Assembly (NCBI GenBank): GCA_051941275.1
Contig: JAVEBF010000004.1
Coordinates: 1-64,000, forward strand
From: Dirinaria sp. TL-2023a
Taxonomy: Eukaryota
Length of the DNA stretch: 64,000 bases
Reading direction: 5' to 3'
The number at the start of each line of letters is the position of its first letter. The first letter of the stretch is position 1. The position numbers and the translations under genes are program-made. Positions 15,860 to 35,574 of the stretch are shown piece by piece. The notes below the pieces were generated by a model. The model did no database searches. It saw only the letters and a list, made by a program, of their open reading frames with translations, and was not told the origin of the DNA.

Positions 15860-17452
15860 GAGAGTCTGGCCAGTCCTTCGTGCACTTGAGCAGCTCGTCT
15901 ATGCCCTAATTTTAGCGCCTTGGATCGCCAAGATCATGCAAGCACGATACGGATTGCGGGTATAGATCGGATTTGCCAGCGCTTGCATATGTATTGATGA
16001 AAATTCAATGCGCACATCCATCGAGAAGGCCCTTAAATCCGTGGAGAACGTCGACGTGGTCGCTTTCTGCCTGAAGCGTCGAGCATGCAGAGTAAGGTAC
16101 CTTCACCTAAACTCAAATTGATGTGACAGTAGTGTTACTTATCCCACGCTCTTCGCTTAGCATTCTCACTACTGTCAATCTACTGTACGGATTAACCCCC
16201 ATGATGATAGTCCCTTTGGCCTATTATGCATCATCCTTACCAGTACGGGGCTTTCTTTTCCGTTACGATTTGACGAGCCAAAGGTACCTCAGGCTACCAC
16301 GTCGTCAGGCTTTATCGAGCATTCCAACCTATCATTGACCGTGCACGTACTCTCATACCGTTGTTGTTGAACGGCAAACGGCCACACTTGGTCGTCGATC
16401 ACTAATGTAGCGGCCGCAAGGTACCGAGGGTTTCTTGTGGGAGAACTTGCGCTAACAGCTTTAGAGTCCCCCGGCAGAGGCGCTACATGCCGATAGTACC
16501 GTAGTGACAGAAGGGTACAATCACCCTCAACACACTTTTAAGATGTTGACTGCTCACAGGATACATTACGTACGTTGGGCTACAGTAGCATATGATCATT
16601 GGCTACCATCGCCACGGGATATCGTCCTTACCGGAAAGAGCAGCGCGTTACGGCAAGTGCGCTGAGACTCCGTAGCTTACGGCGATGTCAAAGGTCTCGG
16701 CCATTGCTCTGACGTGCGCACGCGAACTGGGATTGCCGTACCTATTTCCAAATCAGATATCTGATTTGGTATCGAAGAAATCGATCTGAATAATAGTTCT
16801 CCGTCACTTGTTCATTGTTTTTCAAAATTTTACCTTTTTCCTATTCGGTGGAGGTCGAGATCTGCAGCGCAGCCGCTCCACGCAGCCACCAATTCCTTCA
16901 GTTCTCGTGAGCCGCTTTGGCTACAGTCTGGGGAAATCCTTCCCGAACAGCCCGCCCTTGTACGGGTACCTCGTCCAACGGTGGAATGAAGCTAGGTAGG
17001 GCTACCCAATCTCCAATGATTTTTGACGATGCGGCACTCCCAGCGACTTGGTCACGTTTGGAATAGAGCACTGCTGGGTACTACTGAGCGCCGGCCCATG
17101 TTCTGGAACGAACGCCTCCCCATTGGCGCAAGTTGCGTCCCCACCAACATGAAGCCAATAGTTGGGCTGCAAGGTCTTGGAGCTTCTGGAAGATCCAGAT
17201 CCAGCATTTGAGAGGGATCTTGCATTGCTCGGGAAATTCATCACAGCAAGCAGTGGCAGGTGTGACTATTAACGCAGGAACCAGCACACGATCTCTTACC
17301 TATTTGCCACTTGGGGATATGGAATCCGCTGAACAGCTACTTTAGCTTTTCACATCAAAAAGATCGGTCTCCCTCTTTGCCTTTCTGCTCCCCACGATGT
17401 CGTAGGACCACGTTGTTTTAGATGCTTGCTAGCTAAATATAATCACGGGGCC

Positions 17453-18064
17453 ATGGATGACTTTAGCGTCTCTTCGAGCTCCTCACGAGGAGCATCATCC
17501 TCTTGCGGTGACACACCTCGGCGTGCTGCGATTGGCCCGTGCTCGGTGACAGAGTTATCGCGGCAGTTCGATCAGCACACTCTCGAGCCCCAAAAGCGAG
17601 CTTCGTTTGCGCGATCTTCACCTTCCCAGTCCTACCACCTCCACCCTACGATGGCGCGCGATCTCCCATGTTCCATGAACAGCCAAAACACCAGCCGACG
17701 CCCGCGAGAATCAATTATCCGCCGCCAGTGCTCAGCCGCCAGTATGTCGCGACTGTCATCCTTGGTACAAGACCTCATTCGTGACGAAAGTTCGGCATAC
17801 GACGCTGCCCACATCTCGCCATCAAGCGATAGCGACTCCGTACCTCCACTGTTCTCCCACGAGCGGCCTCGATTAGGATCCCCTACTACCAGTTTCGCAT
17901 CTACCTCTTCTTGCTCGGAGGACAGCGAACTCGAGCCACAGAGATCTTCGGGAACTGGGCCAACGTACAGAGTAGGCAAGGATCTGAGCCATATTACTAC
18001 AAGAGAGGGAGTCAGCAGACAGTATAAAGATGTCCGAGTCAGAAAAGCCAGCAGGAGGAGATGA
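17453..18064 (+). CDS. Ser-rich hypothetical protein with basic C-terminus
   Basis: ORF of ~200 aa from ATG 17453; low complexity, ends RVRKASRRR. Start uncertain. Confidence 0.55.
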   Translation: MDDFSVSSSSSRGASSSCGDTPRRAAIGPCSVTELSRQFDQHTLEPQKRASFARSSPSQSYHLHPTMARDLPCSMNSQNTSRRPRESIIRRQCSAASMSRLSSLVQDLIRDESSAYDAAHISPSSDSDSVPPLFSHERPRLGSPTTSFASTSSCSEDSELEPQRSSGTGPTYRVGKDLSHITTREGVSRQYKDVRVRKASRRR

Positions 18065-18512
18065 CCGACGTCGGCTAGTTGACAGAAACGAGTGTGGCAA
18101 TTATTTTTTGCAGGGGCGTTTGGAAATCATGTTTTTCTAAAGTGATCATAGGTGGTTCGCGGAATGATTACGACCTCTTCGAGGCTACGGCGATGGATTG
18201 AGGTATCTCATGGGGTACGGTTTCGTCTAAGGCTGTCGTAATTTGTTGTATGTCGATGCTAAATAGTGAAGAATGTTCTGACATATCGAGTCTACTTTAC
18301 TCTATCTTAGTATTACTTACCTAAAGGTACCTTATCTGATGCTCGTGTTCGTGCATTTTGCGCCATTGACTGCATTCCGCATACCGCTATGCTACAATGG
18401 GTTAGCAGTATCTTTTCCCTTAATTCAACCCCCCCCCCGATCCAATCAAGTGTCCGCTCCCTCACCATTTATTAATCCCATTCCCATATTCCCATACCAT
18501 GGGAGTACCTAG

Positions 18513-19528
18513 ATGGCAGGAGCAAGAATTGCTTCTGGCATTAGGAGACATGGTCTCACCCCCGGTGCAGTACATATCCGCGTCTTTCCCCGGCCACGAA
18601 ATCTTGCAGAAAGCAGGGAAATCTTGAAGGCTCTAGAGAAGTATGGGGAGATATCCATGTATAAACATCTCAAAGTTCGTGTCCTCACTGCGCTCAAAAC
18701 CCGATCGACACATCACTAGAGAGTTTCTTAGCTGATTTCAGTCTATTCCAGTATGAGCCCATCGCCCCTGCCGCGAATACGATATTAGCCATTTACCAGA
18801 GTCCGCAATCCGCTCAAAAGTTGATCGGCGCTAGTCCTTTACAGCTCAGGCTCGAGCGCAAAGACAGCGGCTGGAAGCATCTTGACCCTGATGGCGCTAG
18901 TGAGGGCAGTAAAGCCGCGAGTGAAGATCAGCTCTTGGTAAGCCGAGAGGAGGCGACCACCGTACCAGCGGAAGCACTAAACGCTGGCGGAGATTCATCT
19001 GGAAGCGACAGTGCTGGCGAGATTTCGGGAAGCCTCGCTCCCAAAGACAATACATTCAAAAACCTAGGTGGAAACAATAAATGGGGCTCCCGGGGCCCTT
19101 CTATCGAGAAAGCATCACCTGTAGAGACCTCGCCACAGCTAAAGACAATGAGACCAGACGCCGAGAAATTAACAGCTCTCCCAATCATCTCATTCCAAAG
19201 CGCTACGCCCCAAACCAATCGACACGGTCAGTCCATCTCTACCAAGTACCGAGAGTACAAACTCGAGATCAGTCCTTCGAACATGAATCACCGGGCCTAT
19301 ATAGCACGGCAATTGTACTACGGGCCCTTCCAACCGGACACGAAAACAATCATGGCGGCGGATCTGGACGGGAGAGTGCCATTGGACGGGATGCTCGACT
19401 GCCACATGGGGAAGGGTGAACGCCCTTTGCGCGAGAGAATACAAATGAAGGACGGTGGCGCGTTCAGATCATTCTCGCTCAAAGAACTGTATGAGAAGAA
19501 GGTTTCAGAAAGCAATGGAAATCTGTAA
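18513..19528 (+). CDS. Fungal hypothetical protein (possibly mitochondrial)
   Basis: Exon 1 VHIRVFPRPRNLAESREILKALEKYGEISMYKHLK joins exon 2 (YEPIAPAANTILAIY...) in phase across a GTTCGT...CCAG intron at ~18675-18751. Confidence 0.75.
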
Positions 19529-20559
19529 TATTCCGCTGGAGTTCATGACGCAGCTACAGCATGTCTTGGCTTAGAGTCGAGAGACACTGCTGAGCTTTTA
19601 GAAAAATACACTCGAATTGAGAGTCGAGTAATCACTGGATGAGCAGCGCAAAGGCATAGCAAGCGGTACAAAGGCTTCCGTCCACTCTACAATAGTATGC
19701 AATTGTCGATCAATCAACCCACAGAAGCACAGCATGTCTTGAATCGATGAAGATATTATCGATTCTTTCTTCCAACCAGGTCTCCTCTGCCATGAGAAGC
19801 GAAAATGTCGTAGCTCGAAGTCGCTTGCGAAATTTAACAAGATGTCACCTTGAGAGTTGAATTTCGAGTGTATAGGCAGCAATAAGAGTTCTCCGCCGGC
19901 CAATATTATTGATGAAGCGGATTGCACCATAGCGATTCTTTGCTATCTATCTATATCTATATCTACTACAGTTTTGACCAAGAATAATCGGGAAGCGAAA
20001 GATAATCCATTCTCAAGGACCACAACTACCTACTGACTAAGCTAGGGATCCATCCCCTGAAGGGCAATCACCCTAGACAGGATCTCAAAATTCAAGAACT
20101 GTGACAAGTTACTCTCCTTGACAGATATGATGAGCTTGTTCCCTGTTCATGATCCAGCATTCTTTGATTCATTTATTTCAATGGTGTTTTCCAGAACGAG
20201 ATTAGCTGGACTCGTCGTTTTCATAATCCTTTTCATAGTGCGTTAAAGGTAGTCGTGTAGGGGTACTGTACTGGACCTCCTCAAGGGCAAGGTGGTTCGA
20301 TGACCACAACTGCTCCAGGCGACTGGTACGAAGACTCAGATTCAGGCCTGGACGCAACCAATACAAAGACCGGCAAGCCCTTGACTGCGAATCCTGAAGG
20401 CAGATAACCCCTGGCACGTTTCACCAAATAAAAGGGTAGGGTGGGAGAGGACTAGCAAGTATACACCTCCGGAGGGTTGTAAGATTGGCCGGTTGGTTAA
20501 GGTACAAAGTTCTGGGGATTGCTAACTATCCCTCAATTATGAGCCAATCCATATTCGGC

Positions 20560-21650
20560 CTAACAGCGTCCAAGGAAACCCATAGTCTGCGTCATAAGGT
20601 AGGAAGCATTTCGTAGAATGGGGTCCAAGATTTCGTCTTCTTTCCGTTCCCAGATGCTAAATCGCAGTGTAATGATCTTGAAAAGTTTGAATGTATCAGC
20701 ATAGAATCGATGACAACAAGAAGTAAAAGCGTCTCAGAAAATCGATGGAGAGATGGAAGATGATTCATCATTTCCTCTCATATACTTCAAGGCATCTGAA
20801 TACTTAACAACCTAACTAAGTCAAGGAATCCAAAGAGCAGCAGAGAGTATGATTTTTAACAGTCTCCGTCATAGGAAGAATTCTGTAGGATAGTATGAAG
20901 GAACTTCTTACTCTCTCTCTCAGAGCGTTCGCAGATTCTAAGATACAATGTAATCATCTTGGAAAGCTCGAAAGCATCCATATAAGTCCGGTGATGATGA
21001 AAATTTGGAGGCGTCTTTTAGCGAGAACAATTAAGATGAAAGTTGATTCTTTCCCAAGAGTCCGAAGGCATTCAAATACTTGACTATCTGCAGTCGCGGA
21101 GCTCAAACGTCGAGCGGATCCTGATAGTATTTCTGAAGCTTAGTATTTAGAGACTTGAAGGGCGTTTTCTTTGAGCGTTCGTCGATGCTAAAATACATCT
21201 TGAACATTCTGAGAAGCTTGAATGCATCCACGTAAGCTCGGTGACATGAAAACCTGAAATTATCTCCTTGAAAAAAATAAAGGGTAAATTCCATACGCAC
21301 TGACCGTAGACCAGAAACGAAAGCAAAGAAAGGAGTGAAATTCCTAATCTCATAGACTTATAGCGGCTTTCAAATCGAACCGTGAAAGGTACAAGATTCC
21401 TTTGGCAGGAACCTCAGCGGTTCTCGGCGATCTGATACAATGTAATGATCTTGAAAAGCTTGAAAGCATCCACGTAAGCTCTGTGATACGGAAATCTGAA
21501 AAGATTTTATCACCAGTAATCAGGTGAACAAGATACTTCCCAAAGACAGAGGAAGTTGTTGCTCCAAGAATAGCTTGATCAGTTGCATGTGATTTGACAC
21601 GAACGAAAGAATCTTCGCTTCTCTGCTTGTAGAGACTAATATCTTCTGAG
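20560..21650 (-). pseudogene. Tandem repeat-domain gene remnant (4 units of ~240-280 bp)
   Basis: Minus-strand translations: HRAYVDAFKLFKIITLY (~21470), HRAYVDAFKLLRMFKMYFSIDER (~21230), HRTYMDAFELSKMITLYLRICER (~20980), HRFYADTFKLFKIITLRFSIWER (~20700). Stops and frameshifts lie between units. Confidence 0.7.
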
Positions 21651-21655
21651 ATCGA

Positions 21656-21786
21656 TATTGGTAACCGGTGGGAAAATGATGATTTTGAAGAAAGATGATT
21701 TCCATTTGACGAGACAATCGTTCTCTAAGTACTACTTGCTGACTAATGAAGTTGTCAAGTCGACCTCAGAGTTTAGAACTCTAACA
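21656..21786. repeat. Direct repeat copy A (~120-130 bp; partner at 24973-25088)
   Basis: TATTGGTAACCGGTGGGAAAA-TGATGATTTTG...GACAATCGT...CTAAGTACTACTT.CTGAC...CTAACA is shared by both copies. Confidence 0.92.
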
Positions 21787-22154
21787 ACTGTCGCTAAAGC
21801 TCAGACAGATGGTCATCAAATATAACGACGCTGATTTTTTTCGCTATCGAGATAGCGATAATTGTAGAACTGACGTGTTTGAATTTTTTCGTTAATGAGA
21901 TGACGTTTTTATTCGTTTCGATAGCATCAACAGTCGAAAAAATGATTGTTAAGATCGTTTTTTGAGACATTGACAAAACTGCTGATGATGAAACGAAAAA
22001 AGCTCGTGATTCCTTCTCTGAATCTCATCCGTCAATGTTGAAATCAGAAATAGATTATTTTCGTTTGAATGAGATCGTGAGTTTTGACATTAAGATCTCT
22101 TTAGTTATCGATTTGTTGCTTTGCTCGTTGAGGTTTTCGTGATAGAGTACGATT

Positions 22155-22294
22155 TATGGTTGGTAAAAAGGTTGTCATTCCTAACTACTGAATGGTCATC
22201 TAAAATACAAGGGCGAAAGGGCGGTTGCCACGGTGACAATTGCCACCGTCCATGGTGGCAAGTACTGCCACTACCAATGGTCCCAGCAACCGCA
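22155..22294. repeat. Direct repeat module 1 containing a palindromic GC-rich element (22221-22293); partner at ~22640-22773
   Basis: AAAAGGTTGTCATT..AACTAC.GAATGGTCAT.TAAA.TACAAG..GCGGTTGCCACGGTGA..TTGCCACCGTCCATGGTGGCAAGTAC...GCAACCGC. Confidence 0.92.
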
Positions 22295-22639
22295 AAATTT
22301 CGAGCTGTTGTGACGAGACGAGATCGTTTAGTTTATAACGATTGATAAGATCGATCTTGATCTTTTTTCTGATCAGATATACCTCTTCCTTCGTGCCTTT
22401 TTGTTCAAGCAGCTGAATATTTCCCATGATTATTGGGTAGCGTAAGTGTCCCTCTCCGTCGAGTATCAATATCGTCTTGTCGTGACCATGGGCATTCTGC
22501 CTTACTCCACCATGTGAGTTAAAACTATCCAGAAATAGCAGCAATGCAATACACACAGTGAAAATTCTGGAGCGAAGTTGACTTGTTGATTCCTATGTTT
22601 AAGAGAATCTGTGAGGAGTCGGATTTGGTAGGGTACTGG

Positions 22640-22773
22640 TTATGGGTGATGAAAAGGTTGTCATTTGCAACTACGGAATGGTCATTTAAATACAAGCGGT
22701 TGCCACGGTGATTGCCACCGTCCATGGTGGCAAGTACTAAGTACCGCCACAACCAATGGTACTGGCAACCGCA
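22640..22773. repeat. Direct repeat module 2 containing a palindromic GC-rich element (22696-22772)
   Basis: GCGGTTGCCA...TGGCAACCGC 10-bp inverted ends and internal hairpin TTGCCACC-GTCCAT-GGTGGCAA. Confidence 0.92.
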
Positions 22774-23124
22774 ACAGGATTTGCCTTCGATGTTCTTCGC
22801 TAGTGACATAGAGTTTGGAGATCGTCAACAAAGCACCAATTATAGTGCTTCTATCAACTGCAATCTTTGATTCAAAACCTTTGGTTGTTTCTAGAATCGT
22901 GTTGACTCTGGCAATCAAGTTGATGAGAAATTTCTTGATCTGCAGTTTGTGATATCTCTTTTTTTGATGATGCTGATATCTTAATTGATTCATCTCGTTC
23001 AGCAACTGCGAGAATAGTTGCTGTCTCATACTTAGGGGGAGGTCATCGATTCGATAGTGAGGTTCATCGAATGCGCTTCGTCACTAAAGATGAAAATTTG
23101 CTGAAGTTTTTCTCTCATGATATT

Positions 23125-23574
23125 TCAAAATGTCTTTTGAGATAGTGCTTCGTTTTTGTCGAGCGAGATTTCATACGCTTTGCCGTCTTCAGTATTGATT
23201 GTGTAGGGTAGAGTAAAGCAGAAAAATTCGACTTCTTTCTGCTTTAGATGGGGCCTGCAGTAGATATTGCTGGGCGATGTCTCAGATTGAAAATCTAGGG
23301 ATAGATCTCTCTTCGTCTCGCTCTTGAGTTTTTTTCTTGAAATTTTGGTTGAATCTTCTATGACGTTTTTCGCCCTCTTCTTGCTCTTGCTTGCAGTGGC
23401 TGCTGTCACTGGCGTGTTTTTCTTCTTGGGCACACCGCCCTCTTTTCTGCTTCGGCCACTCGCTTGACCCCCTAACTTCCCTGCCATGACCTTCTTGGGA
23501 TTACTTTCGAGTGAGCTCTTCGAATGTCTGCCCATGATCGATGATTGCGGACAAGATACGTCGCTCATGTTCAT
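23125..23574 (-). CDS. Lys-rich hypothetical ORF in the island (may be a truncated pseudogene)
   Basis: 149 aa, very basic, contains AGKLGGQASGRSRK; ends at a TGA that could be a mutated TGG. Confidence 0.4.
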   Translation of the reverse strand: MNMSDVSCPQSSIMGRHSKSSLESNPKKVMAGKLGGQASGRSRKEGGVPKKKNTPVTAATASKSKKRAKNVIEDSTKISRKKLKSETKRDLSLDFQSETSPSNIYCRPHLKQKEVEFFCFTLPYTINTEDGKAYEISLDKNEALSQKTF

Positions 23575-24299
23575 CGAGTATACAGATCTCCGTCAAGAGT
23601 TCTTTGCTGGATCGATTCATAAATCCACAGTCGATGAAAAAGCAGCGGTAAGACGATTCAGTCTCTGAAAACGATGAATCGAGATTAGCTAACATATGAG
23701 AAAGTCATCCTCATTGAGTTGAACTAAAGGTGTGACTCCCCGCACGCAATCCTGCATCGTCGAAGAGTCAAGAATCCCCGCTGCTGGTCCTTCGGTTTTC
23801 TGTTGTCTATTGGATGTGTAATACATCATTTTGCCACTTCTCCAAGAGACACAATACGCAGTTGGGACCGGATCCTAAACAATCTGTTGCTGGTGAATAC
23901 TTGAGCAATGTGTTCTCCTCCGTTTTCGAGAAGGTCCAGTATGGGCGTGACGGTTTTCCAGCACCTCTTCCTAAACAAGGCGATTGTCTGTGACTGCCGA
24001 ACTTGTCAGCAGATATAATCCAGAGGCAGAGTAATGTTTAAGGGCCGTACTCACAAATGTGAGCTTGTTTGCTGCCTCCTACCAACACAAGAGGCCATAA
24101 TCTCCGTCTCAGCGGAGTCAGCTTAGGAAAGCCTGAACAGTGGAGAGTATCTGACGAGCTTTATCATTGTGAGTACAGTGATTATCACGCGATGTCGAAT
24201 AAATTGTCATGGAATGACAAGAATGCTGAAAAAGAGAGGAAATTCTTGCTTTTGCGACTATGAATCTATGGTCCTCTTAATACATGCTGGCGTCACCGC

Positions 24300-24900
24300 A
24301 AGGACGTCTCGATGAAAAAAGCTCCAGTGCAGCAAGGAGGCAAAAAAGGATGGTACCAGCGAATCGTTGCATTCATATTCGATCTAAATATGTCAGTTTG
24401 ACATGATGAGAGGATTGAACAAGCAAATAGGCAGTCTCCGTGTTTTCTAGCATCTGCAGCCATCAATCGTCCCAAGAACGAAATATCTTGTTCAAATAGT
24501 CCATACTGGCTTTTCGATCCAACAGATCTAGATTTCCGCTCTAGATTCTCGCCTTTTGACAACTCCTCTCGAATGGGTTCGTCCATTTGTCGATAATTGG
24601 AGAGCCAATCTAGCAATTTGTTCTTTAATCTGTCCTCAGCAGTCGTTCGCACCCTGCACACTTGACGCGACATAGTTTTGTTGATATGTCTTTGCATGTC
24701 GTATCCACTGCAATATTATGGTCATTGAGATCACAAGCCTTTGGAATCAAGAAACAGATAAAGCATCTCCATATCTTCCAGTTGCATTCGCAACCGTCAA
24801 GGATTCCGCGAGTCAAATATATTCGTGACACTCGATTGACATTTTCAAGCACGACTCTTGATATCTCTCGATAATCGCACCTTTTCATGAAAGTTAGGAA
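24300..24900 (-). pseudogene. Zinc-finger gene remnant, paralog 2
   Basis: NWKIWRCFICF...LNDH...TCKDISTKLCRVKCAGCERLL followed by in-frame stops; aligns with the 26.6-26.75 kb segment. Confidence 0.65.
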
Positions 24901-24972
24901 TATCTAGGTTATCGAGTCGATCGAGGTAGTCGTTTAGCAATTGAAAATAATCCTTACTTTTTCCATTCATTC

Positions 24973-25088
24973 TATTGGTAACCGGTGGGAAAAATGATGA
25001 TTTTGGAGGAAGATGGTTTCCATTTGGCGGGACAATCGTCCCCTAAGTACTACTTACTGACCCGGCCCCAGGGTCGAGGACCCTAACA
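24973..25088. repeat. Direct repeat copy B (GC-richer, less mutated partner of 21656-21786)
   Basis: Same core as copy A but retains GG/CC dinucleotides. Confidence 0.92.
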
Positions 25089-26104
25089 CATACATTGAAC
25101 CTGCGTAAGACTCATTCGAGCTTTTGTCAAAGACGTTGTACTTGTCAGTAGACAACAATTCAATGTTCACAATGAATATAAAGTATAACAAAATGATACT
25201 AAAAGGATCAATGAAAAATTTCAATCGTGAGCGTAGAGGATGCACCGTCCAATGGACATAGTAGTTGATCGAAACAATGAACCAGAAGTCTTGCTTCAAC
25301 TAATTTTTAATTTTTCAAATCTCCACTGGTGAGACGTCCCGAGCAATAGAGAGGGAGGCTCGCTCGGGTGGAATCGTAAATATCAGGAAGAACATAAATG
25401 CTTCGACAAGAAGAGGAAGAAAAATTTGACAGAAGAGCTGTCTTTCAAAAAGCCTTAGCGCCTTTCTTAACACCAAAATCATTTCACGAGGAAAGGGAAA
25501 AAAGAACTTGGACTTATGCAGATTCTTGAACTTGACGGTCGTCAGGATGAAGATATGACAAACAAAATCTGATCGATTATCTCCTAGCATTCCATTTTTG
25601 CGTCTGGCGGAATCGTCAATTTATCTTATGATATTAGACTCAATGACAAATTATCAACAATGGCAATATCAAACCTGGTAATCTGTCGACATCTTTAAAA
25701 CAATGACAGTTGCATCAGCGAACATCCGGTTCATGATCTCGAAATTAAGCTATGTCTTTCATGCGATGATTTTGTTCAGTTTTGGTCACCGATAGCGGAG
25801 TTCAAGTTCTAATCTTCCATGTCCTCATCTAGGACGTGCGGGAACTTAAGACTGTCAGTCATACCTTAAAAAAGTTCGTAAATGTTAGATCTCTGTCGAG
25901 AGCTGCGAGCCCATATCAAGGACGATAGTGTCAAACATGATAATCCAGAGCGAGTTTTGAAGATAATTAGTCGCTCACCCTTTGAGATCCATAACAGTCT
26001 AAGATAGAAGATGCGGATCATAATTTTGGTGGTTCCGCATTGAACCAAACAGAAGAAACATTGGTTATCGACTGTACCATAAGCCGACTTTATATAGTAC
26101 TAAC

Positions 26105-27737
26105 CTATTAGCATCTGTTCAATTCAATATTGATCTTTGTTCTGTTCCATAAGAGAGGCATTCTTTCATCCAATATCTTTCAACTCTCACGAATGAGATC
26201 TTACATAGATTTCTTGCTGCTCGAGGAAAAACAACATTCCTGAACTTCCAATTCTGATCCAGCTATAAGCTCTCTGAATGTGATGTGGATGATTTTGGAT
26301 TCTTGCGCAGTTTACTTTAATTTTAATTTATTCTTGACAGCATGAACGTTCTCACGAGAACAGGAGTCTTGACAAAATCAGTCTTTCGAGGCTTCAGCTT
26401 AATGAAGTAATGAGGAGTTTCTTTTCTTTTCTTGAGTAATTGAGCTGAAGTTTGAATAGGTCGTGTAGAGCACAACGGTTCGTCGTTTTTCAGAGACATG
26501 ATTGGGCATTGGATCAACCCAGATGTCGTGTCATCTTGTCCCGATCAGCGTTGGCCCATAAGTCATTGTGTGGGCAAGCGAGTCAATGCATTGCCCAATT
26601 CCCTGTGTCTAGCAGTTTCTCACATCCTGGACACTTCACAGAACACAAGTACTTGAAGATGTTTTTACATGTGGCACCGCCGAAGTTGAAATGCTCTTGA
26701 AGAGTTCTGACAGTGTCGAAACAGTCGAAACAGGTGTAACATCTATACAGCCATCAATTAATTAACCCAGTCTTGTCCAATTTTCGCGAACCCTTTTCTG
26801 CATGTTGTGATGATCAAAACTTGGGCTCTTATTTTCCTTGACATAGCACTGATGTGAAATAAAACAATGTTGAGTCTCGACTGCACCGTGCGCTGACTTC
26901 ATGTGATTTTTTTCATCTGCCCTGTTTTGAAGCTCACTCATGCAGACATAGCTGACAATCTGTTGCTCGGTCGTACGGTAGATATTCATCTCGAAGTTCT
27001 CGAGAAATGTTCCGAATATGTTTCAGCATTCGTGTACTTTGATTCTCATAGTGATTGCAAGCAATCGACGAACATTTGAATGGATGAAAAGTTGACTGAG
27101 TTGAAAAACTTATCGTCTCGCTGTAACTGTCTCTAGTCAGTTGCTGAGTTCTGGTGGTCTGTCAGTGGTCGAATCCAATTCTGAGGTATATGCGGCCATC
27201 TACACGCCAGGCGCATAATACCGGTCTACACTCTTTGAATGCATCATATAACTGAAGATACAGTGCTGTGTGCAAAAACCTCCAACTCAAAACGCGTTTC
27301 AGCCTCAAGTAGACAAGGTAGATCGATGTAAAGCAAGTTACTGAGTACTGAAGATTGCCAGATCACAGCTCGAACAGTTTCATGGATTGTTCCACCCGGG
27401 GCGAGTACCTCTGGTTTCCACAGAGGCTCTGACATTGTCGAAAGACTTGTTGACCTGGATACAGAACAAGACGAGAGATTTTATAATGGCTGAAAACTTT
27501 GATTAGTAGGATCGCTTCGAGGGATGGATTCGAAATAATCCAATATCGTATATGATAGACTGATTGCGTCAAGTAAGCCCAGTTGACGATTTTGAATCCT
27601 TGCAAAGATGTACTTAGCTTCTGCCTTTGCACGTGAAACTCACCGCGGTGAACTCATCTTGAAAAAATCACGAGCATCTTCAAATTCTTCAAAAGACGTG
27701 TAATCTTTTCAAGTCTTCCAATTAAAGCCGCACGCAT
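26105..27737 (-). pseudogene. Multi-exon zinc-finger gene remnant, paralog 1
   Basis: ATG at 27737 and phase-consistent GTGAGT...GCTAAG...AAG intron at ~27599-27643. Long frame 27120-26105 with HPFKCSSIACNHY..MLKH and WLYRCYTCFDCF..LQEH...TCKNIFKYLCSVKCPGCEKLL, interrupted mostly by TGA. Confidence 0.68.
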
Positions 27738-27969
27738 TCTAGATCCCGCGGCCCACTGCCTGTATTCTATGGCATTCGAAAATATGTGTCATGATTAGTA
27801 AGAGAAATATGGTCGTTCTAAATAGATATATTGTATAGGTAAAATAGAAGATAGAGAAAGACCGATCTAGGATATAAAATTAGCTCAGTCGTCTTGATCT
27901 ATCAGGTAGACTGTTTTGAGAAACCCGCCACAGTAATTGTGGTATTGTACGACACGGGCAGATTGATCA

Positions 27970-30400
27970 TTTAGTACGCAGAGCGTAAAATCATCACGAT
28001 GATATCTCGACTCGAATGAAGTCCCAAGATCGACGATGTCAGTCTAAAAATGAGTTGAGAGTAAATTGAGAGACTAAAATGAGAGGAATCGATATACAGC
28101 ACTCTTCGTACATGCACAATCGGGCGTCTCCATTTCTAGCTTCGTCAGAGGCATGGAAACACGCAGTCAAGGACCTGTGAGCCAAGATGCATCCTCCGGG
28201 AGACGACCCCAGTGGGCTGTCCTTGTGATATGTCGCATCCGTTGGATGTATTGTGTCTCTCTCGACGAATGAAGACCGTTCTCCGTCAAGGGTTTTTCCA
28301 GTCCTCGGGGCGTGCGTGAAAGGGAACCATTGTGCCATCTTCCAAATATCGATAATGGCCTGAGTCAACGGGCAACACTCATGACTCAAAGTCTTCGATG
28401 TGCTGTAACTTGTAAGCATCAACGATATTCACGTTGCTCTCTACGAATCAACTGCTCTCTGAGATACAGATTAATTCAGTGATTGAGTCTTAATTAAGAT
28501 TGCATCATCCTCTCACTCAGTTAGCAATGAAGATCTGAGCTCACTGACAACACCCACGATTTTTTATTCTTGAATGAAGACATCGACCATTGAGAAATCA
28601 ACGAGAATCTGTACCATCCTTCGAAGCATTGATCTTCATCATCTGTACTTCTTCGTTCGGTCTTCGCTTCTCGACGTTGTGTGTGCAGAATGATTCTGAG
28701 CGAGTCTGATTTCGCAAAACAAACACCTATTCGTTTAGAACTAAAATGTTCGTGATGATCCATCATATTACAAGACATTCCATGTGTATAATGTGGGCCT
28801 GGTAGCAACCAAGTTGTGCATCAGGGCAGGCGATCTGAAATTATCACCCTCCCTTAGCTGAAGTATGATAATGTTAATACTTTGTCTCTTGCAGCTAGCG
28901 GAATGAGCAACAAGTCCCAGGTTAGTCTTGTATACTCTGTTAGCGTTCTGTTTATGAACCGCAGAGCTATACCAAAGATGCCGCAGCTGTGATGGCGCCT
29001 GCCGCCTTTGGTGGGGCCTTCAAGTTATTGCTCGCTGTATTGCTGTCATTAATTCATATTCCAGTGCATCTTCCGCTGCGGAATTGCTATACAAACTACA
29101 TGCTCAATAGGCAGTATCTTAGAAGGTCCAATACACGGGAGTCTTTTGCGGTGTTTTTGAGCTTGAACTCGATAATTCAATGTGTACTTCATGTCGGCTT
29201 TCGTCAAAGTAGTATATTGGTGTCGAGAATCTGACGTTCCCGAGCATCTTTGTGAAGCTTGGTGGTGGACCATTTCAGCTAACTTCACGCTTGCGATAGT
29301 ACTGTGAAATAGTTCAGCACATACCCAACCATAGAATTAGCCAAGATTGGCATGTCTATTTGCCGAAGCTAGAACAGGTGAAACATCGAGACCTACCACC
29401 TTGTATATATACTTTAAATAGTTGTTGGGTTTGGACAAGTTCAGTCAACATATGTCGAGTGTTTGCTAAAGCGCGGGTTTTTGGATTCTGCATCAAATCG
29501 AGTTTTTCTAGATGTTGCGGAACCAGTAGAGATTAATTGAGAAAAAGCCCATCTGTCTTTCGAACTCGAAGCACAATTGAAAATTGCGATAAATCCGCGA
29601 CCTTGAAACAACAGACTTGATAGAGCGCACTGTGCTTTTCATCAGTACATCGCAAGTCTCGTCGCATGCCTTTTGAGATGAGCGCATTGAGTGCTATCTG
29701 GAAAAGAAGTCAATGGGACATCTGTGATTGCTTCAAGACATCTAAAAATGTCATATATTCATTTTTCCGAAGAAATTTACAAGTCTCAGTTTCACCTTTC
29801 ATGTCCGCGCTCGAATGCTTCGCGTCGATTCGATTCTGAACGTTCGATCTGTACTGCTGTCAAATTTGTTTAAACTTCTGCAATCTCTCGAAAACCTGTC
29901 TTGTGCCATTGAGCATTTCCTACTTACCAAATCCAAGAGATATTGCCTGAATGTAAGCTTTTGAGCTTTATGAGCAAAGGCGCCCCAGCTGTAGCTATCG
30001 AAGTAAGCATGAATTTTTTGAATAAGCACTTCTATTGCCAGTAGCTCCGTTGCCGGTTTTAAGCAGGGATACACTATCTACGGTGTCGAGTCGAATCGAG
30101 TCTACATTTGTAGAGCAAATGCTGGGTTTGTATCGGTGTGTTGCAGCTGAGGGATTAGAGGTGGTTTTGTCACTGGAAGGGTCTGCAGCGTTTAAGAGAA
30201 ATCGGCATTTCTGAGTTGGTCCCAAAATTGGACGCTGAGTCCAACATATAGATATCTTTTTCGTATACAAGATTTATTGCTCCATAGGTCTTGCAAAGGA
30301 TTCACCTTGATTATAGAGGACCTAAAAACCATATTAACATTCCAAGTATGCGCAGCATGGTGTAGTGAAGTCAAACTCGTATTTGAGAAGAGCATTCGAG
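27970..30400 (-). pseudogene. Large decayed multi-exon gene of unknown family (may extend to ~31570)
   Basis: Frames can be joined across short candidate introns (~40-50 nt) into a long protein-like sequence (e.g. AAEDALEYELMTAIQRAIT*RPHQRRQAPSQLRHL*LTWDLLLIPLAARDK) with scattered stops, many of them TGA. Confidence 0.45.
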
Positions 30401-32023
30401 ACTCATGAACGAGGCCAGGACGAGACTCCCAGTCCCATGCCGTAATAGTTGAGAGTCCAATATATACGAGGCGGTCCTAGCTGCACATCAACTCGGCATT
30501 CTTTACACTTGATAATAAGGTAATCATACGTACTAATTAGCCTCTCCACTAAAGACGTTTGGCGGACGTATGAGACGATTTAGGAGGTTGGGGAAGGAGT
30601 AAAAGAAAAGAAACAATAGCTATAGTATCACCTTCTCATAAAAAGCAACTTGTTCTATCTCGCTCTAGGAGCTGTAGTATTGTAGGTACTCCTCTTACCT
30701 CTTGTCCTTAGTACATATCTCCAAGTCTAGACTTCAGACTTCAAATGAATCACCAGGGCTCAATTTGACAGACAGTAAAGATGGGTGAAGGCTATCCAAG
30801 CTGTGATATCTGAATGATCAGAGACATTCAGCAGGGTAGGAGTGTCATGTTTGAAGGATATATCTAGGAAGGTAGGAGAGTGTGACAGTTCTAGCAGCAA
30901 AGAATGTGCTTTAGAAAGCCAGTCTGTCGCGAAGTATTGCTGCGTCTCAATTACATATCCTCTTATCGAATCCAAGAACCTATGGTTTTGTGGAATGAAA
31001 GAGGCTTCGCCGAGATCAATGATAATAGTATCACTAAGTGTTGTTGATAAGGTGACCTGTAAAGAATTCATCCACAACGCAATATGAAAAAAAAGTTCAC
31101 TAAGAATTCTTAGAAATACAGCAATGTCTTTTCATTGTAAAGAAAATACTCTGATTACCCTGGTAAGTCGACACTCAGGCATTTCGTGTTCACTTAGCAT
31201 CTATCACCGAGGATGCATCGGCAGTCGCAAGAAATGATTGTAGGAAGCCCATGACGAAATCTAGAGTCATCTGAAAGCTCGAAGGCCAAAGGAGGACTTG
31301 GTGAGGACAAGGATTTGGGAATGAGGGAATGCTCATCTTCGCTGGATGCAAGCCTTTTGCCCTGTCTCCGATCCTGCTTGCCTATTGGATTTCGGTTTCC
31401 AACTTGAAATGATCCTCCCCTTCTAAGCATGGAAAGATTGATGTTGGCAGCCGGTCGTGACCGTAAGCTTCCAGATTATGTGGCCTCGTAGGCTTCACAG
31501 AAGCAGCCGATGCCACTTCTAGATCGTTCAGCCTTTCGCAGGCAGCCATATGAGTAACGGTAGTCATAATCTAATTATTAGACGACAACTTAATTTGGTG
31601 CTGCGAGAAGAAGGGGCGAGATAGGTGAATATCAATAGGACCAGAAACTCGAATGTCTCCGGACACGTTCCCACTTCCACCTTTAGGTTGCCTGAACCTC
31701 CTCTATTCAAGAGCTCACCTGCAAGTCATGAATTGCCATTTGAAAGACAATCAGGAAGCATTCTTCATTTGTCTCACTCTACCGCCTAATTTTCATGGAG
31801 CTTACCTCCAATCCTTGACGCTCAAGGCTCACTAAGTTGATATCTATGCTTATGAGCCATCTTCCAACTTCCCCTCGTAGTAAGGCTATTTACGCAAACT
31901 TGTCCAGCTCTATCGGAATTGAGCGAGAGAAAGTCGACCGGGTATCTCAGGAACGCTAAGGCGCCAATGGTTACTACCTAATCAGCAGTACAGTAGAAAT
32001 ACTCGAATGCTAGTAATCCCAAG

Positions 32024-33562
32024 TCACCGCTCATCGCTTCCGTCCTCTGAAGACGCTTCTTCCTGTGTCGTCATCCGCTGGTTCTTCGCCTGCTCTGGAC
32101 TTCGTGAGCGCCTTGAGTCGCTCGAACCCCGCTTCAAAGGGCCAGCAGGAGCATTAGTCAAAGTCGGAGTATTTGACTGACTCCCATGGTGCATCACCGA
32201 TGGTGGTGGTGGTCCAGATTGAAATTTGTGCGGGTAAGGATTCAGATCCTTGCTACTTGTGGAGAAAGTACTGACGATTGGCGGACGTTTCTCTTTTCTC
32301 CCATTACCGTTACTTTGTTCCCCGCTTTGCGAAGGTACAATCGCGGAATTTGGGTCGGGTGTGACGGGCGACCCAGAATTCTCTTCTTCATTGAGCTCTT
32401 CGTTGAGGGATATCCACCCACCTTCGATATCTCGTAATAATCGAACATATTCTTCAGGGACGAGTCCTGATTCACCGGTCTTGGGATCCTCAGCCACCAA
32501 CCAGCCTTGGCCATGTCGGTATGAAACCCATATCACTTGACCTTCAACAAGTGGAAGTTCGTTTTCGTTCTCTCGTGCAAAGTCGAAGAGAGCAACAGCT
32601 TTGCCATGCATTTCTTCATCTGGTGAAGCAATTGTGAATTGGTAGTCCTTTGAGTACCGAGATTCATCCATTTGGTTTGGCATATCCGAGTCTTCGCCAG
32701 AGTCTTCCTCTTCATCCGAATCGTTGTATCTTCGGCTGGGGAGCGTCGCGGCGAAGTGAGAATCTCTTTGGCCAGGCGCATGATATTTGTCTGGTGCAAG
32801 CGTAGACAGCCTCGATTGATCGGATGAGTAGGCCACAATCCCAGCGCCTACATCATGGCTACCTTCGTCCCCGGCTCCGGTGTGAGCATATCCGGTCCGG
32901 CCCCCATTTGCAGCTGCAAAATAATCGTCTTCGTCTTCGGCGTCCCCAGGACTCCGACCTCTGCCTGTACCCGGTGTTCCACCTGCGGCTGGGTAGCCAG
33001 ATTTATGTTTCTTGCGCCTCGAACTCACAACCACCGGGCTATGAAGATCCTCATCCTCGCTATACGGTGGGCCGTCTCTATATGCCATTTGCGGTAGCTG
33101 TTGATGCGAGGCAGATCCATCTCCAATCCCTGGCCCTGCTTGCCACGAGGAGCCGGCTGCCTCCCACGTAGTGCCGGGCGCATCTGATAGTCTCCGTTGA
33201 TACTCACTCTGGGGTGTAGACGTCCCAGATTGTAGGGCTGGAGGCTCTGCAGGAGGTCCGTAGTGGTTAGGATGCACTATTGGATATGCAAAGTCTCGTA
33301 CGAGGGCGTATGGAAGGCTTGAATGGAAGTGCGGAAAGGCATATGATTGTGGTCGTGAGCGGTTCGCAGCGCTATTGGAATTGGTCGAGTATGAGGACAT
33401 GCGATTCTTTGCGTACGAGGGTGGACGTGGGTGTGGCGACCGTCGGGTGTTTTGGTTGGTATTTAACGGAGGTAGATGAGCAAGATTCGGGTTCGATGGC
33501 GGACTTTGCGGGTGGCGAGGTGAGGAGGTCCTTGAAGGGGATGCTGACAGCACAGCTGTCAT
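32024..33562 (-). CDS. NBP2: SH3-domain adaptor Nbp2 (HOG pathway/Ptc1 adaptor)
   Basis: SLPYALVRDFAYP motif plus SH3 domain GKAVALFDFARENENELPLVEGQVIWVSYRHGQGWLVAED..GESGLVPEEYV. Confidence 0.85.
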   Translation of the reverse strand: MTAVLSASPSRTSSPRHPQSPPSNPNLAHLPPLNTNQNTRRSPHPRPPSYAKNRMSSYSTNSNSAANRSRPQSYAFPHFHSSLPYALVRDFAYPIVHPNHYGPPAEPPALQSGTSTPQSEYQRRLSDAPGTTWEAAGSSWQAGPGIGDGSASHQQLPQMAYRDGPPYSEDEDLHSPVVVSSRRKKHKSGYPAAGGTPGTGRGRSPGDAEDEDDYFAAANGGRTGYAHTGAGDEGSHDVGAGIVAYSSDQSRLSTLAPDKYHAPGQRDSHFAATLPSRRYNDSDEEEDSGEDSDMPNQMDESRYSKDYQFTIASPDEEMHGKAVALFDFARENENELPLVEGQVIWVSYRHGQGWLVAEDPKTGESGLVPEEYVRLLRDIEGGWISLNEELNEEENSGSPVTPDPNSAIVPSQSGEQSNGNGRKEKRPPIVSTFSTSSKDLNPYPHKFQSGPPPPSVMHHGSQSNTPTLTNAPAGPLKRGSSDSRRSRSPEQAKNQRMTTQEEASSEDGSDER

Positions 33563-35574
33563 GCTCGCTGCTGCGAAAGGCGCTGAGGCCTGGTATTCGC
33601 AAGATACTGCAGCGAAAAAGTTGGAAATGAAGGCTTTTGATTATTATGATTACATGCAAACTGATTGCGTCCTCGAAGCACAGCTCCAAGTTGTATAGAT
33701 TGGCCAGTGCCTAGGTCACAGGCGGACAAGTCAGCACTCCAGCCACTCCGGTGTCCTCGTCATAGTGGCTACTGACCTATGCAGATATGGTTCGCAGTGT
33801 CTTTGTAGATGTTGAAGGATGTGAGTTGACAGCAGCAGATGCAGCAGCAGCCCCAACGGGCCTTGAAGCGGTCTCTACCAGCACGAAAATTTGTTGGATT
33901 GCGGACTGAAGTCCTGCGGCAGCGGATGTAGCCAATACCACAAACAAACCCACAATTGCGTCACACTCGCAGACTTTCTGAATACCTTATGCAGATACAC
34001 GGCAGACTGAGCTAGGAGCAAACGACGAGCCCGCGACAATGGGTGGACCGACTGTACAGTCTCTTTGCGATCTGACTCGACGAAAACCGCCGGGATGAAA
34101 CGGCGGGTCAGTCGCGGTGTTTCAAATAGCTTACGGGGCTGCCGAGGACGTGTGTTGTTGTAAGACAACAGTATTATTGTACAGTGAGGTTCAGTTCACG
34201 GGGTGCGCGACAGCAGTCTGGTAAGGTAAACAGTGTTGGTGAAGTGGGGCGAGGGTGGGATGGAAAGAGGGAGGGATGTAAAGGTGCAGGTAGTGATGGA
34301 GGAAAATGCTACTATTTTTGGAGTGGAGAGAGAGAGAGGAGGATGGAAGGCATGAAGTGTCTGTCAAGCAGGAGCCAGCGGAGAGCACTTTGCTGCAAGA
34401 TTCGAATTATAAATACGTTACTATGGACTTTCTACTACTGACTTTTGAAGGTCCAAAATATACTACTCTCGCCAAGGTACATAGGAAGCCTCAGAGTCTC
34501 ATGGACAAGTTCGAATCACACCGAGATCGGGTCAATTGTTGTTGTGCTTAATCACCGCCCATCTCCTCGGTGCTAAATAAAGACAGATATCGATAACAAG
34601 ATACATGTGGGTCTGCATCATCATTGCAATCATGTGACACATCGGCCCAACCCCCATAGAAAGTCACACAGGTTCGTTGAAAGACCAGTCAGGATCGGTC
34701 GGTCGTATGCAGTGAAAGTCATGATGGAGCACACGATTATCAGCATAACGAACGAGTTCATCTAGCTCAAAAGTCAGTTAGGAGAAGACTCGGTGTCTCT
34801 TCTGCTTCTACAGCATTGATCAGCATATCTCGGGTGTTTCAGATTCTCGCTTGTGATGAACTTGTCTGCAGATGGAATAGCGTTCATCCGGAGCCGCAAG
34901 CAACCAAACGAGCCAAACTGACCATCAAAATCAATCGTGCATCCGCATAGAAGAGGATGTACAGTACTGTACATCAGCTAGATAGTAGCACTGTAAGCCT
35001 AGCGATTGAGATTCTCGACATACTTATCCGCAGTGGTCAGAAGAGCCAGCCAGAGAACAGTTCTGGCGGGACAAGACGAAAACAATGTCGAGTCTTCCGT
35101 CCATCAGCCCGTTCTTTGGGCGTCGCTTGTTCGCAGCTAATCTTGCTGTACTTCTACATGACCAGCAGCACGACTGAGGAGGACCCCGCTTTACGGACAC
35201 GGTCAGTGCGCACACTCGATAGCAATCAAGGCAAGGGCAATACAGAATAATGCAATGAAATCCATTCGCTTAAATAAAAATTCTCGCAAAGGTCTTCTCG
35301 GACGCCAGATCAACGCCACACATTGCCCTCTAGGGCCACCGAGAGACCGGAGGCAGACCTCCGGCTTCTCGTGAGTGACCCATTAGATCATGAGCTGCAG
35401 CCGGGTATTCGCAATCACTTTCGCTAAATAAACCGCATGAGGATCTGTATAATCCTTGGAAAAATTCATGTCAGACCTTGCTGTCGCCACTTACCAGCGT
35501 CAATGCCGGCCGCAAGCCATTCGCCAATCGATGCTTGTGCAACTTTCCTCTCCCACTACCCAAGTTACCGCCGT

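Follow-up and report, generated by a model that had tools for sequence, protein, structure and literature searches.

Additional ORFs lying between pol and the 3′ LTR are known from Ty3/Gypsy retrotransposons (PMC6431247; PMC7264820). RIP-affected islands of nested transposable elements (TEs) have been described in lichen fungi, both in Cladonia rangiformis (PMC12542154) and as the LRARs of Xanthoria (PMC13486527). In the same group, the Starship Tangerine consists for more than half of nested, RIP-affected TEs, mainly LTR/Ty3 and LINE (PMC13486527). RIP in its classical form converts CpA to TpA (PMC2621366).

We analyzed a stretch of 64,000 nucleotides from the lichen fungus Dirinaria sp. TL-2023a (hereafter the window), which holds an island of 12,301 bp with some of these traits. 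Like the islands as these sources describe them, it is gene-poor and lower in GC, with nested retrotransposon remains and a C-to-T excess. Its GC content is 0.418 (20570-30000) vs 0.493 and 0.500 in the flanks; this ~42% compares with 10-40% in the ripped TEs of Cladonia (PMC12542154). The mutational target in the window is CpC, not the CpA of those accounts, and ~79% of the island consists of orphan gene relics rather than recognisable TEs. Stop-free segments of at least 90 aa number 18 on the minus strand and 1 on the plus strand (shuffle mean 2.9, maximum 7; 100 shuffles), in agreement with the co-oriented minus-strand coding relics reported by a first-pass annotation, and the broken genes and gene fragments number at least seven where it had claimed at least five to six. 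Its failure to find reverse transcriptase (RT), transposase, helicase or DUF3435 was likewise confirmed, none having a Pfam match in any of 170 stop-free segments (at least 38 aa, both strands). The best Pfam match of any kind, to DUF1563 (16 residues, E 2e-4, just past its cut-off), is probably due to chance, and the 27 ORFs and two long read-through frames gave no credible match. The genes had been thought to be spliced, which is not borne out: a donor/branch/acceptor scan, a crude one that finds just 2-6 per strand in the genic flanks, returned one intron-like stretch on each strand (24054-23994 on the minus strand) vs a shuffle mean of 5.

Table 1 Features of the island, in positions of the window.
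Feature	Position	Strand	Remarks
114-codon orphan ORF, left island end	19601..19942 (part of 19601..20243)	-	no Pfam match
Solo LTR, family C	20244..20565	-	322 bp, TG start, 4-bp TSD ACGC
Broken four-unit gene, ~83-codon units	20566..21655	-	single copy, no known family
Four-unit cores	20643-20728, 20924-21009, 21174-21259, 21416-21501	-	spacing 242-281 bp
LTR, family B, in 3′-LTR position behind ORF-Y	21656..21786	-	no TSD
ORF-Y relic, 3′ part, internally deleted	21787..22590	-	62% over 92 aa to C1811 ORF
Solo LTR A2, inside ORF-Y	22140..22297	.	5-bp TSD CGAAA; one terminal TG degraded
ORF-X relic, 5′ part, start approximate	22591..23800	-	own-genome matches and intact homologues
Solo LTR A1, inside ORF-X	22626..22776	.	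151 bp, TG...CA, 5-bp TSD AATCC
Broken Cys/His zinc-finger gene 2	23810..24972	-	holds intron-like stretch 24054-23994
LTR, family B, at 25 kb	24973..25088	-	flanks GTATG/GAATG, 4/5 bases alike
Decayed coding-like sequence	25089..26330	-	ORF pieces; no Pfam match above chance; no second copy
Broken zinc-finger gene 1	26331..27794	-	~487 codons, one frame, 13 TGA + 1 TAA stops
Broken orphan gene, limits approximate	28150..28850	-	less mutated paralogue on contig C2
Further pseudo-ORFs, incl. 123-codon ORF 30763-31131	28851..31200	-	single copy; no Pfam match

Five LTR copies from three families (A, B and C) are present inside the island, and the two pairs of duplicated modules described earlier are LTR copies, not protein modules. 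Exact target-site duplications (TSDs) flank three of the five (AATCC, CGAAA, ACGC). The terminal TG...CA is intact in A1 and degraded at one end in A2, B and C, the end of LTR-C being read as CA changed to TA, and relatives are found on other contigs. LTR A1 is 95% identical to a copy on contig C598, with related copies on five further contigs, and LTR-C has matches of 80% on C917 and 75% on C1412. The gag-pol domains (PR, RT, RH, IN) are absent between the LTRs by Pfam (170 segments), gag-like, integrase and Pol_BBD relics from elsewhere in the genome had no counterpart in the window at E≤0.01, and the fragmented assembly yielded no RT copy connected with these LTR families.

The family B copy at 25 kb is either a solo LTR or paired, as 5′ twin, with the copy at 21656-21786. 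This pair differs by 15 transitions and 1 transversion, vs 8-12 transversions in comparisons with four copies on other contigs. Twin-like copies could represent one non-autonomous element at 21656-25088, and the island would then be mostly LTR cargo, in which a LARD/TRIM-like derivative (25088 to 21656) carries ORF-X, ORF-Y and zinc-finger gene 2, and the orphans beside it belong to additional LTR elements as accessory ORFs. The single orientation throughout is consistent with this proposal, and DNA capture between LTRs is described elsewhere (PMC6431247). However, the pair has no shared outer TSD (GTATG vs TCGAT), the 25-kb copy has a 4/5 TSD of its own, the sequence behind it differs from that behind a gag-linked LTR-B on C765, the composite has no second copy, and no LTRs were found around the genes at 25.1-31.2 kb. 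We regard the proposal as improbable, and the 25-kb copy as probably a solo LTR with a target-site duplication.

ORF-Y can be placed through its relative on contig C1811, where Integrase_H2C2 (E 3.6e-9), SH3_Tf2-1, ORF-Y and LTR-B follow each other in a single orientation. This locus is collinear with the window minus LTR A2; its LTR-B matches the one at 21656-21786 at 82%, with a shared GACAGT leader. It also carries what we take, by eye, to be a chromodomain, with no Pfam match. An LTR-B-type start lies behind the C-terminus of ORF-Y on C1811, C1794 and, weakly, C1076 (E 0.008), and on C358 an LTR-B-like piece lies inside ORF-Y, not after it. ORF-Y appears to be an accessory ORF of a Ty3/Gypsy family, placed in sense between integrase and 3′ LTR in the paralogous element as in the described elements with extra ORFs, among which brtn of Botrytis Boty is reportedly listed. 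Unlike those elements, neither ORF-Y nor ORF-X has a Pfam or PDB family, and the window lacks gag-pol.

In two LTR families, ORF-X precedes, in sense, a purine tract and an LTR. An LTR is found downstream in five of its ten own-genome matches: four copies are followed by a purine tract and LTR-D, a family with a solo copy in the genome flanked by a 4-bp TSD (CCGC), and behind the copy on C917 a purine tract leads to a repeat of LTR-C type. No LTR was seen beside the copies on C2001, C2763 and C1499, owing to contig ends or truncation. Pol was seen upstream of ORF-X in no own-genome copy (on C917, 0 Pfam matches in 28 segments), and no palindrome was found upstream of the window's ORF-X. Intact homologues occur in three other lichen genera with E-values from 2e-10 to 5e-4 (KAL8788240.1, KAL9000618.1, CAF9909763.1), and all named homologues come from lichen fungi. 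ORF-X is a member of an unnamed lichen-fungal family of helical proteins (500-770 aa, with a His/Cys motif) located directly upstream of 3′ LTRs, and the elements carrying it may be Ty3/Gypsy. Comparison of 14 homologues with Pfam gave nothing better than E 0.006, a word-index protein search only three own-genome paralogues, and the family profile against PDB sequences a best E of 0.09. This family, which here precedes the 3′ LTR in two separate LTR families, was not found in the literature searched.

These LTR copies, together with the ORF-X and ORF-Y paralogues upstream of 3′ LTRs, assign 2,583 of the 12,301 bp (~21%) to LTR-element debris. Matches to LTR elements, which the first-pass annotation had set as the finding that would argue against its reading, cover this part and not the other ~9.7 kb. 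That remainder, which includes two zinc-finger genes, the four-unit gene and further relics, matches nothing in the databases and occurs almost entirely in one copy, although single-copy statements are weak because the assembly is fragmented into 3,105 contigs. The paralogy of the two zinc-finger genes is confirmed (local score 115, z=18.7; 200 shuffles). Gene 1, which has no Pfam match when read through, contains a TAA/TAG-free run of 321 codons matched by 2 of 500 shuffles; gene 2 was found in the window only, and the zinc-finger profile reached a best E of 0.26 against PDB. The four-unit repeat is also genuine; its gene has lost the 5′ part at LTR-B, its profile has no PDB match, and 19601..20243 possibly includes its continuation beyond LTR-C. 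The orphan gene at 28150 has 67-68% DNA identity to its C2 paralogue over 28256-28614. A word-index search with this paralogue and the zinc-finger alignment gave no match, which is weak evidence as it covered longer proteins only. Two further suspected paralogies were not significant (27.0 vs 23.9 kb, z ≤1.5; 26.9 vs 26.1 kb, z 3.1, its score being exceeded by the highest shuffle). The complete set of genes is not repeated anywhere else in the assembly.

Orphan ORFs that carry zinc fingers, are poor in introns and share one orientation would also fit an endogenous virus or Polinton-like relic, as would an Atlas lead from ORF-X to baculovirus FP25K / L1-ORF1-like clusters (score 0.80-0.83), in which recognition was below threshold. 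Capsid, packaging ATPase, protein-primed polymerase and integrase, however, have no Pfam match in the island, a second Atlas query gave no usable match, three IMG/VR scans of low sensitivity showed no relative, and the named ORF-X homologues are from lichen fungi. AlphaFold models of two homologues are of low confidence (pLDDT 57, pTM 0.24), and a Foldseek viral search with one of them is meaningless (TM ≤0.16). The virus-like origin once suggested has found nothing in its support, and we consider it highly implausible.

The relics have decayed through a RIP-like process aimed at CpC and not CpA, and this is why the island genes are unrecognisable. In a young family, 100 of 114 polymorphic columns are C:G-to-T:A transitions, with CpC the most frequently hit context (56/86, 65%) and CpA the least (4/370, 1%). 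The window has T/A for C/G of the C2 paralogue at 46 sites and the reverse at 19, and the directional comparison gives 30/59 for CpC vs 5/53 to 14/65 in other contexts; among the four-unit cores, between-unit differences are CpC-biased (15 of 19). CC+GG observed/expected is 0.72-0.78 across 20.6-30.0 kb (LTR-C excepted, at 1.33) vs 0.93-0.95 in the flanks, where three low-GC windows reach values as low as 0.76-0.83. The left end (19601..20243) has 0.84, with TC+GA at 1.34. Depletion is fairly even across ~11 kb, and the signature fades by ~31.2 kb. As in classical RIP (PMC2621366), mutation is transition-dominated and repeat-associated, as in the LTR-B pair (15/16). Classical RIP, with its CpA-to-TpA dominance, is nonetheless rejected as a description, since indices built on CpA come out negative here (the composite in every island kb, TpA/ApT too) and the young family shows the opposite preference. 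RID-type RIP may be the cause. The earlier proposal of a mobile relic silenced by RIP-like mutation thus stands for mobile-DNA involvement, given the LTRs and TSDs, and for RIP-like decay, with the context corrected to CpC.

The co-orientation of the coding relics and the evenness of the CpC signature over ~11 kb, including parts now single-copy, are points in favour of one large cargo element, either a captain-less Starship fragment or an undescribed multigene element, that was inserted as a block, underwent mutation as a repeat and afterwards took in LTR elements, with ORF-X as cargo captured by LTR families. The genome does contain captains, with eight DUF3435 matches on five contigs among the best candidates scored, and captain contig C1078 is CC-depleted to a similar degree. 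Synteny with the only informative relative breaks at the island, and Tangerine, as described, offers a lichen-fungal precedent for a block of several genes that holds nested LTR elements (PMC13486527). Unlike Tangerine, which spans 85-102 kb in that source, the 12-kb window island has no captain, auxiliary genes or defined ends. No DUF3435 captain was found on its contig (C4, 68,454 bp) among the best candidates scored, and captain and auxiliary families (DUF3723, patatin-like, NLR) have no Pfam match in the 170 segments, where heavy decay lowers sensitivity. Comparison with the five captain-bearing contigs gave only one low-complexity-like match (E 1e-4). The end regions share nothing beyond one 10-mer and have no second copy in the assembly. 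Starship cargo, as the first-pass annotation had put it, is thus left with neither captain nor ends, and its conserved gene block was not recovered: left-flank genes are carried by 0 of 80 fungal NBP2 loci (46 with at least 3 kb downstream), and none of the 80 offers an empty site. Searching island peptides and ORF-X homologues against these 80 metagenome loci returned only NBP2 spill-over and one low-complexity match. On balance, we hold a single cargo element to be unlikely, yet the strongest of the rivals.

Gene fragments captured by a Helitron would likewise be co-oriented (PMC6431247), and among the DNA transposons of many lichen fungi, Helitrons are described as the largest class (PMC13535494). 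Against this, Rep/helicase has no Pfam match, none of 70 CTRR|T sites is preceded by a strong hairpin (best -5.4 kcal/mol), and the island ends are not repeated in the genome, so that this origin has very little probability.

We favour, with modest confidence, the interpretation of the island as a dead composite that combines nested debris of retrotransposons with orphan genes of greater age, rather than a single intact element. It builds on the identity of the LTRs and their TSDs, the order of ORF-Y, integrase and LTR in the paralogous locus, the position of ORF-X before 3′ LTRs and the CpC bias, all of which are observed, and on the dispersal of relatives of the LTRs, ORF-X and ORF-Y over other contigs. 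The starting point would have been an older block whose genes (the zinc-finger pair, the four-unit gene and others) are lineage-specific and poor in introns, quite possibly itself earlier mobile cargo. LTR retrotransposons would then have inserted into it, and LTR-LTR recombination would have reduced these to solo LTRs bordered by TSDs (A1, A2, C and probably B at 25 kb). Deletions may have stripped gag-pol and brought ORF-X and ORF-Y, 3′ accessory genes from two lineages, together beside a 3′ LTR. The RIP-like process would have inactivated the block by changing the first C of CC to T, lowering GC and turning Trp codons into TGA. Both this order and the source of the remaining 9.7 kb are what we infer. 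The shared orientation of all orientable parts and the fairly even CC depletion agree more readily with one element that was once repeated than with piecemeal nesting.

Nests of retrotransposon debris decayed by RIP are a kind of object already known, and because all island genes are wrecked by CC-aimed C-to-T mutation, the island does not demonstrate a functional new element. We did not find in the literature searched a RIP-like process that is directed at CpC and escapes the standard indices, nor the ~9.7-kb set of orphan gene relics, which would define a new element family if met again as a set. A more far-reaching possibility, to which we give rather low credence, is that 19.6-31.2 kb is the fossil of an undescribed lichen-fungal multigene mobile element without captain or gag-pol, whose co-oriented, intron-poor genes (paired zinc-finger, four-unit, ORF-X) travelled together, and that at least two LTR families recruited ORF-X from it as an accessory gene found throughout the Lecanoromycetes, perhaps one acting on chromatin or against silencing. 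If ORF-X is an element-encoded accessory protein, it would be a testable candidate regulator of fungal retrotransposons.

The island is a non-functional relic between an unannotated ORF and an SH3 gene (NBP2 in the first-pass annotation), on a 68-kb contig, whose first 64 kb are the window, of an assembly of 27.7 Mb in 3,105 contigs. The GC content of the island falls to 0.418 in 20570-30000, from 0.493 on one side and 0.500 on the other, and runs of 90 or more codons without a stop number 18 on the minus strand versus one on the plus strand (100 shuffles, 2.9 +/- 1.6, maximum 7), a strand bias that bears out the first-pass view of a co-oriented stretch. Its two zinc-finger genes are indeed paralogous (alignment z=18.7) and its gene of four ~83-codon repeats, the four-unit gene, is genuine; the pair and the four-unit gene are both confined to the window. 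A Pfam search of 170 stop-free segments on both strands returned no transposon, virus or captain (DUF3435, Starship) family, in agreement with the earlier failure to see reverse transcriptase, transposase, helicase or captain motifs, and the sole match over the cut-off was to DUF1563, over 16 residues. Splicing of these genes, also proposed, is unsupported, since a crude intron scan, insensitive in the genic flanks too, gave one candidate per strand against a shuffle mean of 5.

A DNA search of the same genome with the island yielded 21 dispersed matches at 70-95% identity, and alignment with end mapping identified five LTR copies of three families, LTR-A to LTR-C, accounting for 2,583 of the 12,301 bp. 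The dispersed matches, mapped ends and target duplications reveal that the supposed duplicated gene modules are these LTRs. On another contig (C211; C numbers denote contigs of this assembly, L numbers compared loci), a family-A copy adjoins a Pol_BBD-bearing ORF, an adjacency that assigns no superfamily to family A. The two LTR-B copies differ by 15 transitions and one transversion, and by 8-12 transversions from four other copies; they share no outer duplication, the 25-kb copy having its own 4-of-5 duplication, and may be either the paired LTRs of a single element lacking gag-pol or sister insertions. Junctions of LTR-C and of LTR-D, a family found beside ORF-X elsewhere, are repeatedly N-C-G-N (CCGC, ACGC, CCGG, GCGG; L005, L042, L043, L044, L060, L061 and the window's LTR-C), which suggests, from the junction sequences, a 4-bp CG-centred target preference. 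A similar low-complexity repeat lies beside LTR-B on two contigs (L017 7625-8362, L013 3617-4039), on its upstream side in one case and on its downstream side in the second.

Features of the island and its borders, in window positions
Feature	Position	Termini and target duplication	Relation
Unannotated ORF	ends at 19528		left border
Pseudo-ORFs	19.6-20.2, 25.1-26.3, 28.9-31.2 kb		non-LTR remainder
LTR-C	20244-20565	ACGC	
LTR-B, two copies	21656-21786 and 24973-25088		
ORF-Y relic	22590-21787		62% identity over 92 residues to C1811 ORF
LTR-A2	22140-22297	CGAAA	missing from collinear C1811 copy
ORF-X/ORF-Y junction, 60-bp piece	22538-22599		84% to C118:12363-12420
ORF-X relic	~23800-22591		10 own-genome matches, itself counted
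LTR-A1	22626-22776	TG...CA; AATCC	95% to copy on C598
Paralogue-bearing gene	~28.15-28.85 kb		remainder; paralogue on C2, mutated less
Four-unit gene, two zinc-finger genes			remainder
SH3 gene	32024-33640		right border

Two of the broken genes have paralogues beside LTRs. On C1811 an integrase (Integrase_H2C2, E 3.6e-9; SH3_Tf2-1), ORF-Y and LTR-B follow one another in a single orientation, and this position marks ORF-Y as an accessory ORF that a Ty3/Gypsy family carries in sense orientation. An LTR-B-type start also follows the ORF-Y C-terminus on C1794 and, weakly, on C1076; C358 was ruled out as such a locus, its LTR-B-like piece lying inside the ORF. On C765, LTR-B is followed by an ORF without a Pfam match that we take to be gag-like. 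Within the accessible parts of the literature searched, the only fungal extra ORF was the Botrytis gene brtn, which, by its title, is said to be antisense.

Four young copies of ORF-X, 91-96% alike, continue into a purine tract and a common TG...CA repeat (LTR-D, with duplication CCGC in a solo copy), beyond which the sequences diverge. After the C917 copy, 40% identical, come a purine tract and a repeat of LTR-C type; the four other non-window copies are truncated or reach a contig end, and none of these shows an LTR. No ORF-X copy showed a pol on its upstream side, so we can only infer the link of ORF-X elements to Ty3/Gypsy. The C917 locus (L047, G000:C917, 656-9103) contains, all in one orientation, an ORF resembling gag, 5.7 kb in which no pol is recognisable, the ORF-X paralogue and the LTR-C-type repeat; it is either a further mosaic or an LTR derivative filled with cargo. 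Searched with a profile, 1.84 billion proteins yielded 15 ORF-X matches, 14 besides its own paralogue (E 5e-12 to 5e-4), with homologues in the lichen genera Heterodermia, Gyalolechia and Imshaugia (three among the 10 matches looked up). Full-length members (498-770 aa) combine a helical core and an H-x-C-x-C motif with a basic N-terminus and a coiled-coil tail; they matched no known family in Pfam or PDB, and two structure models of homologues are both of low confidence. Own-genome copies cluster in a tree of short rows, with support of 81/73, which is not firm. A ~390-bp palindrome, 88% self-complementary, includes the ORF-X start at a contig end (L001, G000:C2537, 1401-1790); it may reflect an inverted duplication, or else a long hairpin, in the LTR-D element, and is missing from the window copy.

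The RIP-like silencing proposed earlier stands as transition-rich decay but not in its classical CpA context: CpA-based indices are negative across the whole island. In young LTR-D-family copies, transitions make up 100 of the 114 polymorphic columns and, among sites whose 3' neighbour does not vary, the fraction that differs is 56/86 at CpC, 56/445 at CpT, 3/173 at CpG and 4/370 at CpA. CpC sites also differ at 15/19 in the four-unit cores, 8/11 in the zinc-finger pair (CpG 4/6; small numbers), 7/13 in the LTR-B pair and 30/59 from C2 to the window (9-22% in other contexts), a bias weaker than in the young copies because of older neutral divergence. Observed/expected CC+GG is 0.72-0.78 at 20.6-30.0 kb excluding LTR-C; the flanks give 0.93-0.95 and strongly mutated repeats 0.14-0.38. 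Depletion fades toward 31.2 kb, and ratios of 0.76-0.83 occur in a few low-GC windows of the flanks as well. LTR-C, not being CC-depleted, presumably either arrived late or escaped mutation by being too short. Opposite-strand CC-to-TC change turns TGG into TGA, and zinc-finger gene 1 carries 13 TGA and one TAA within ~487 codons, one TGA-type stop aligning with a Trp of its paralogue; its 321-codon run was matched by 2 of 500 shuffles. In the openly accessible article texts searched (including passages of PMC2621366, PMC5555474, PMC8959702), no description of CpC-dominant RIP came to light. The even signature and common orientation of the genes would also suit one formerly repeated cargo element, a serious though unlikely reading, or a non-autonomous LTR derivative, which seems less probable still.

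The island does not qualify as an autonomous Gypsy element, a Starship, a Helitron or a virus. This and the lack of captain families speak against the suggested Starship cargo fragment; a viral origin, with no virus family in Pfam, is very improbable, and a Helitron origin just as much so. The remaining orphan relics have no second copy in the genome and resemble neither its relics of gag-like, integrase or Pol_BBD sequence nor the five contigs with captain matches; the zinc-finger alignment and the C2 paralogue, the two cases searched, found no match in the protein database, both weak tests. The captain matches lie on C1129, C1943, C1897, C129 and C1078; C1078, C1897 and C1943 are probably decayed Starship remains, as they are CC-depleted, and C1129 looks unmutated. 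The C2 paralogue sits in a second gene-poor stretch of ~10 kb (L018, G000:C2:28000-37999) with tandem arrays at locus 1169-1395, 3453-4173 and 7929-8891.

Eighty fungal loci carry the SH3 gene, 46 of them with at least 3 kb downstream. Left-flank genes occur in none of the 80, which leaves the proposed conserved gene block unsupported, and the synteny check yielded no empty site among them. Right-flank neighbours are kept in L070 only, where different ORFs and, beyond them, AT-rich DNA follow the SH3 gene, none of it homologous to the island. The AT-rich part (17000-20255, 25-27% GC) starts ~6 kb downstream of that gene, a hint of a site where repeats insert recurrently. In L081 the window's 5.7-10.2 kb gene is found upstream of the SH3 gene, at a distance of a few kb, so the two flanks are parts of a single ancestral neighbourhood.

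We somewhat favour a history in which a block of orphan genes would have taken in several LTR elements, recombination between LTRs left solo LTRs, gag-pol was deleted so that ORF-X and ORF-Y came to adjoin a 3' LTR, and the block decayed by CpC-directed RIP-like mutation. Nested RIP-affected islands of transposable elements are described, in the parts of the reports available, for Cladonia (PMC12542154) and Xanthoria (PMC13486527); DNA caught between LTRs is also known, as are additional ORFs lying after pol (PMC6431247; PMC7264820). To such islands, the one in Dirinaria adds an unnamed family of putative accessory genes and a large remainder that is unexplained.
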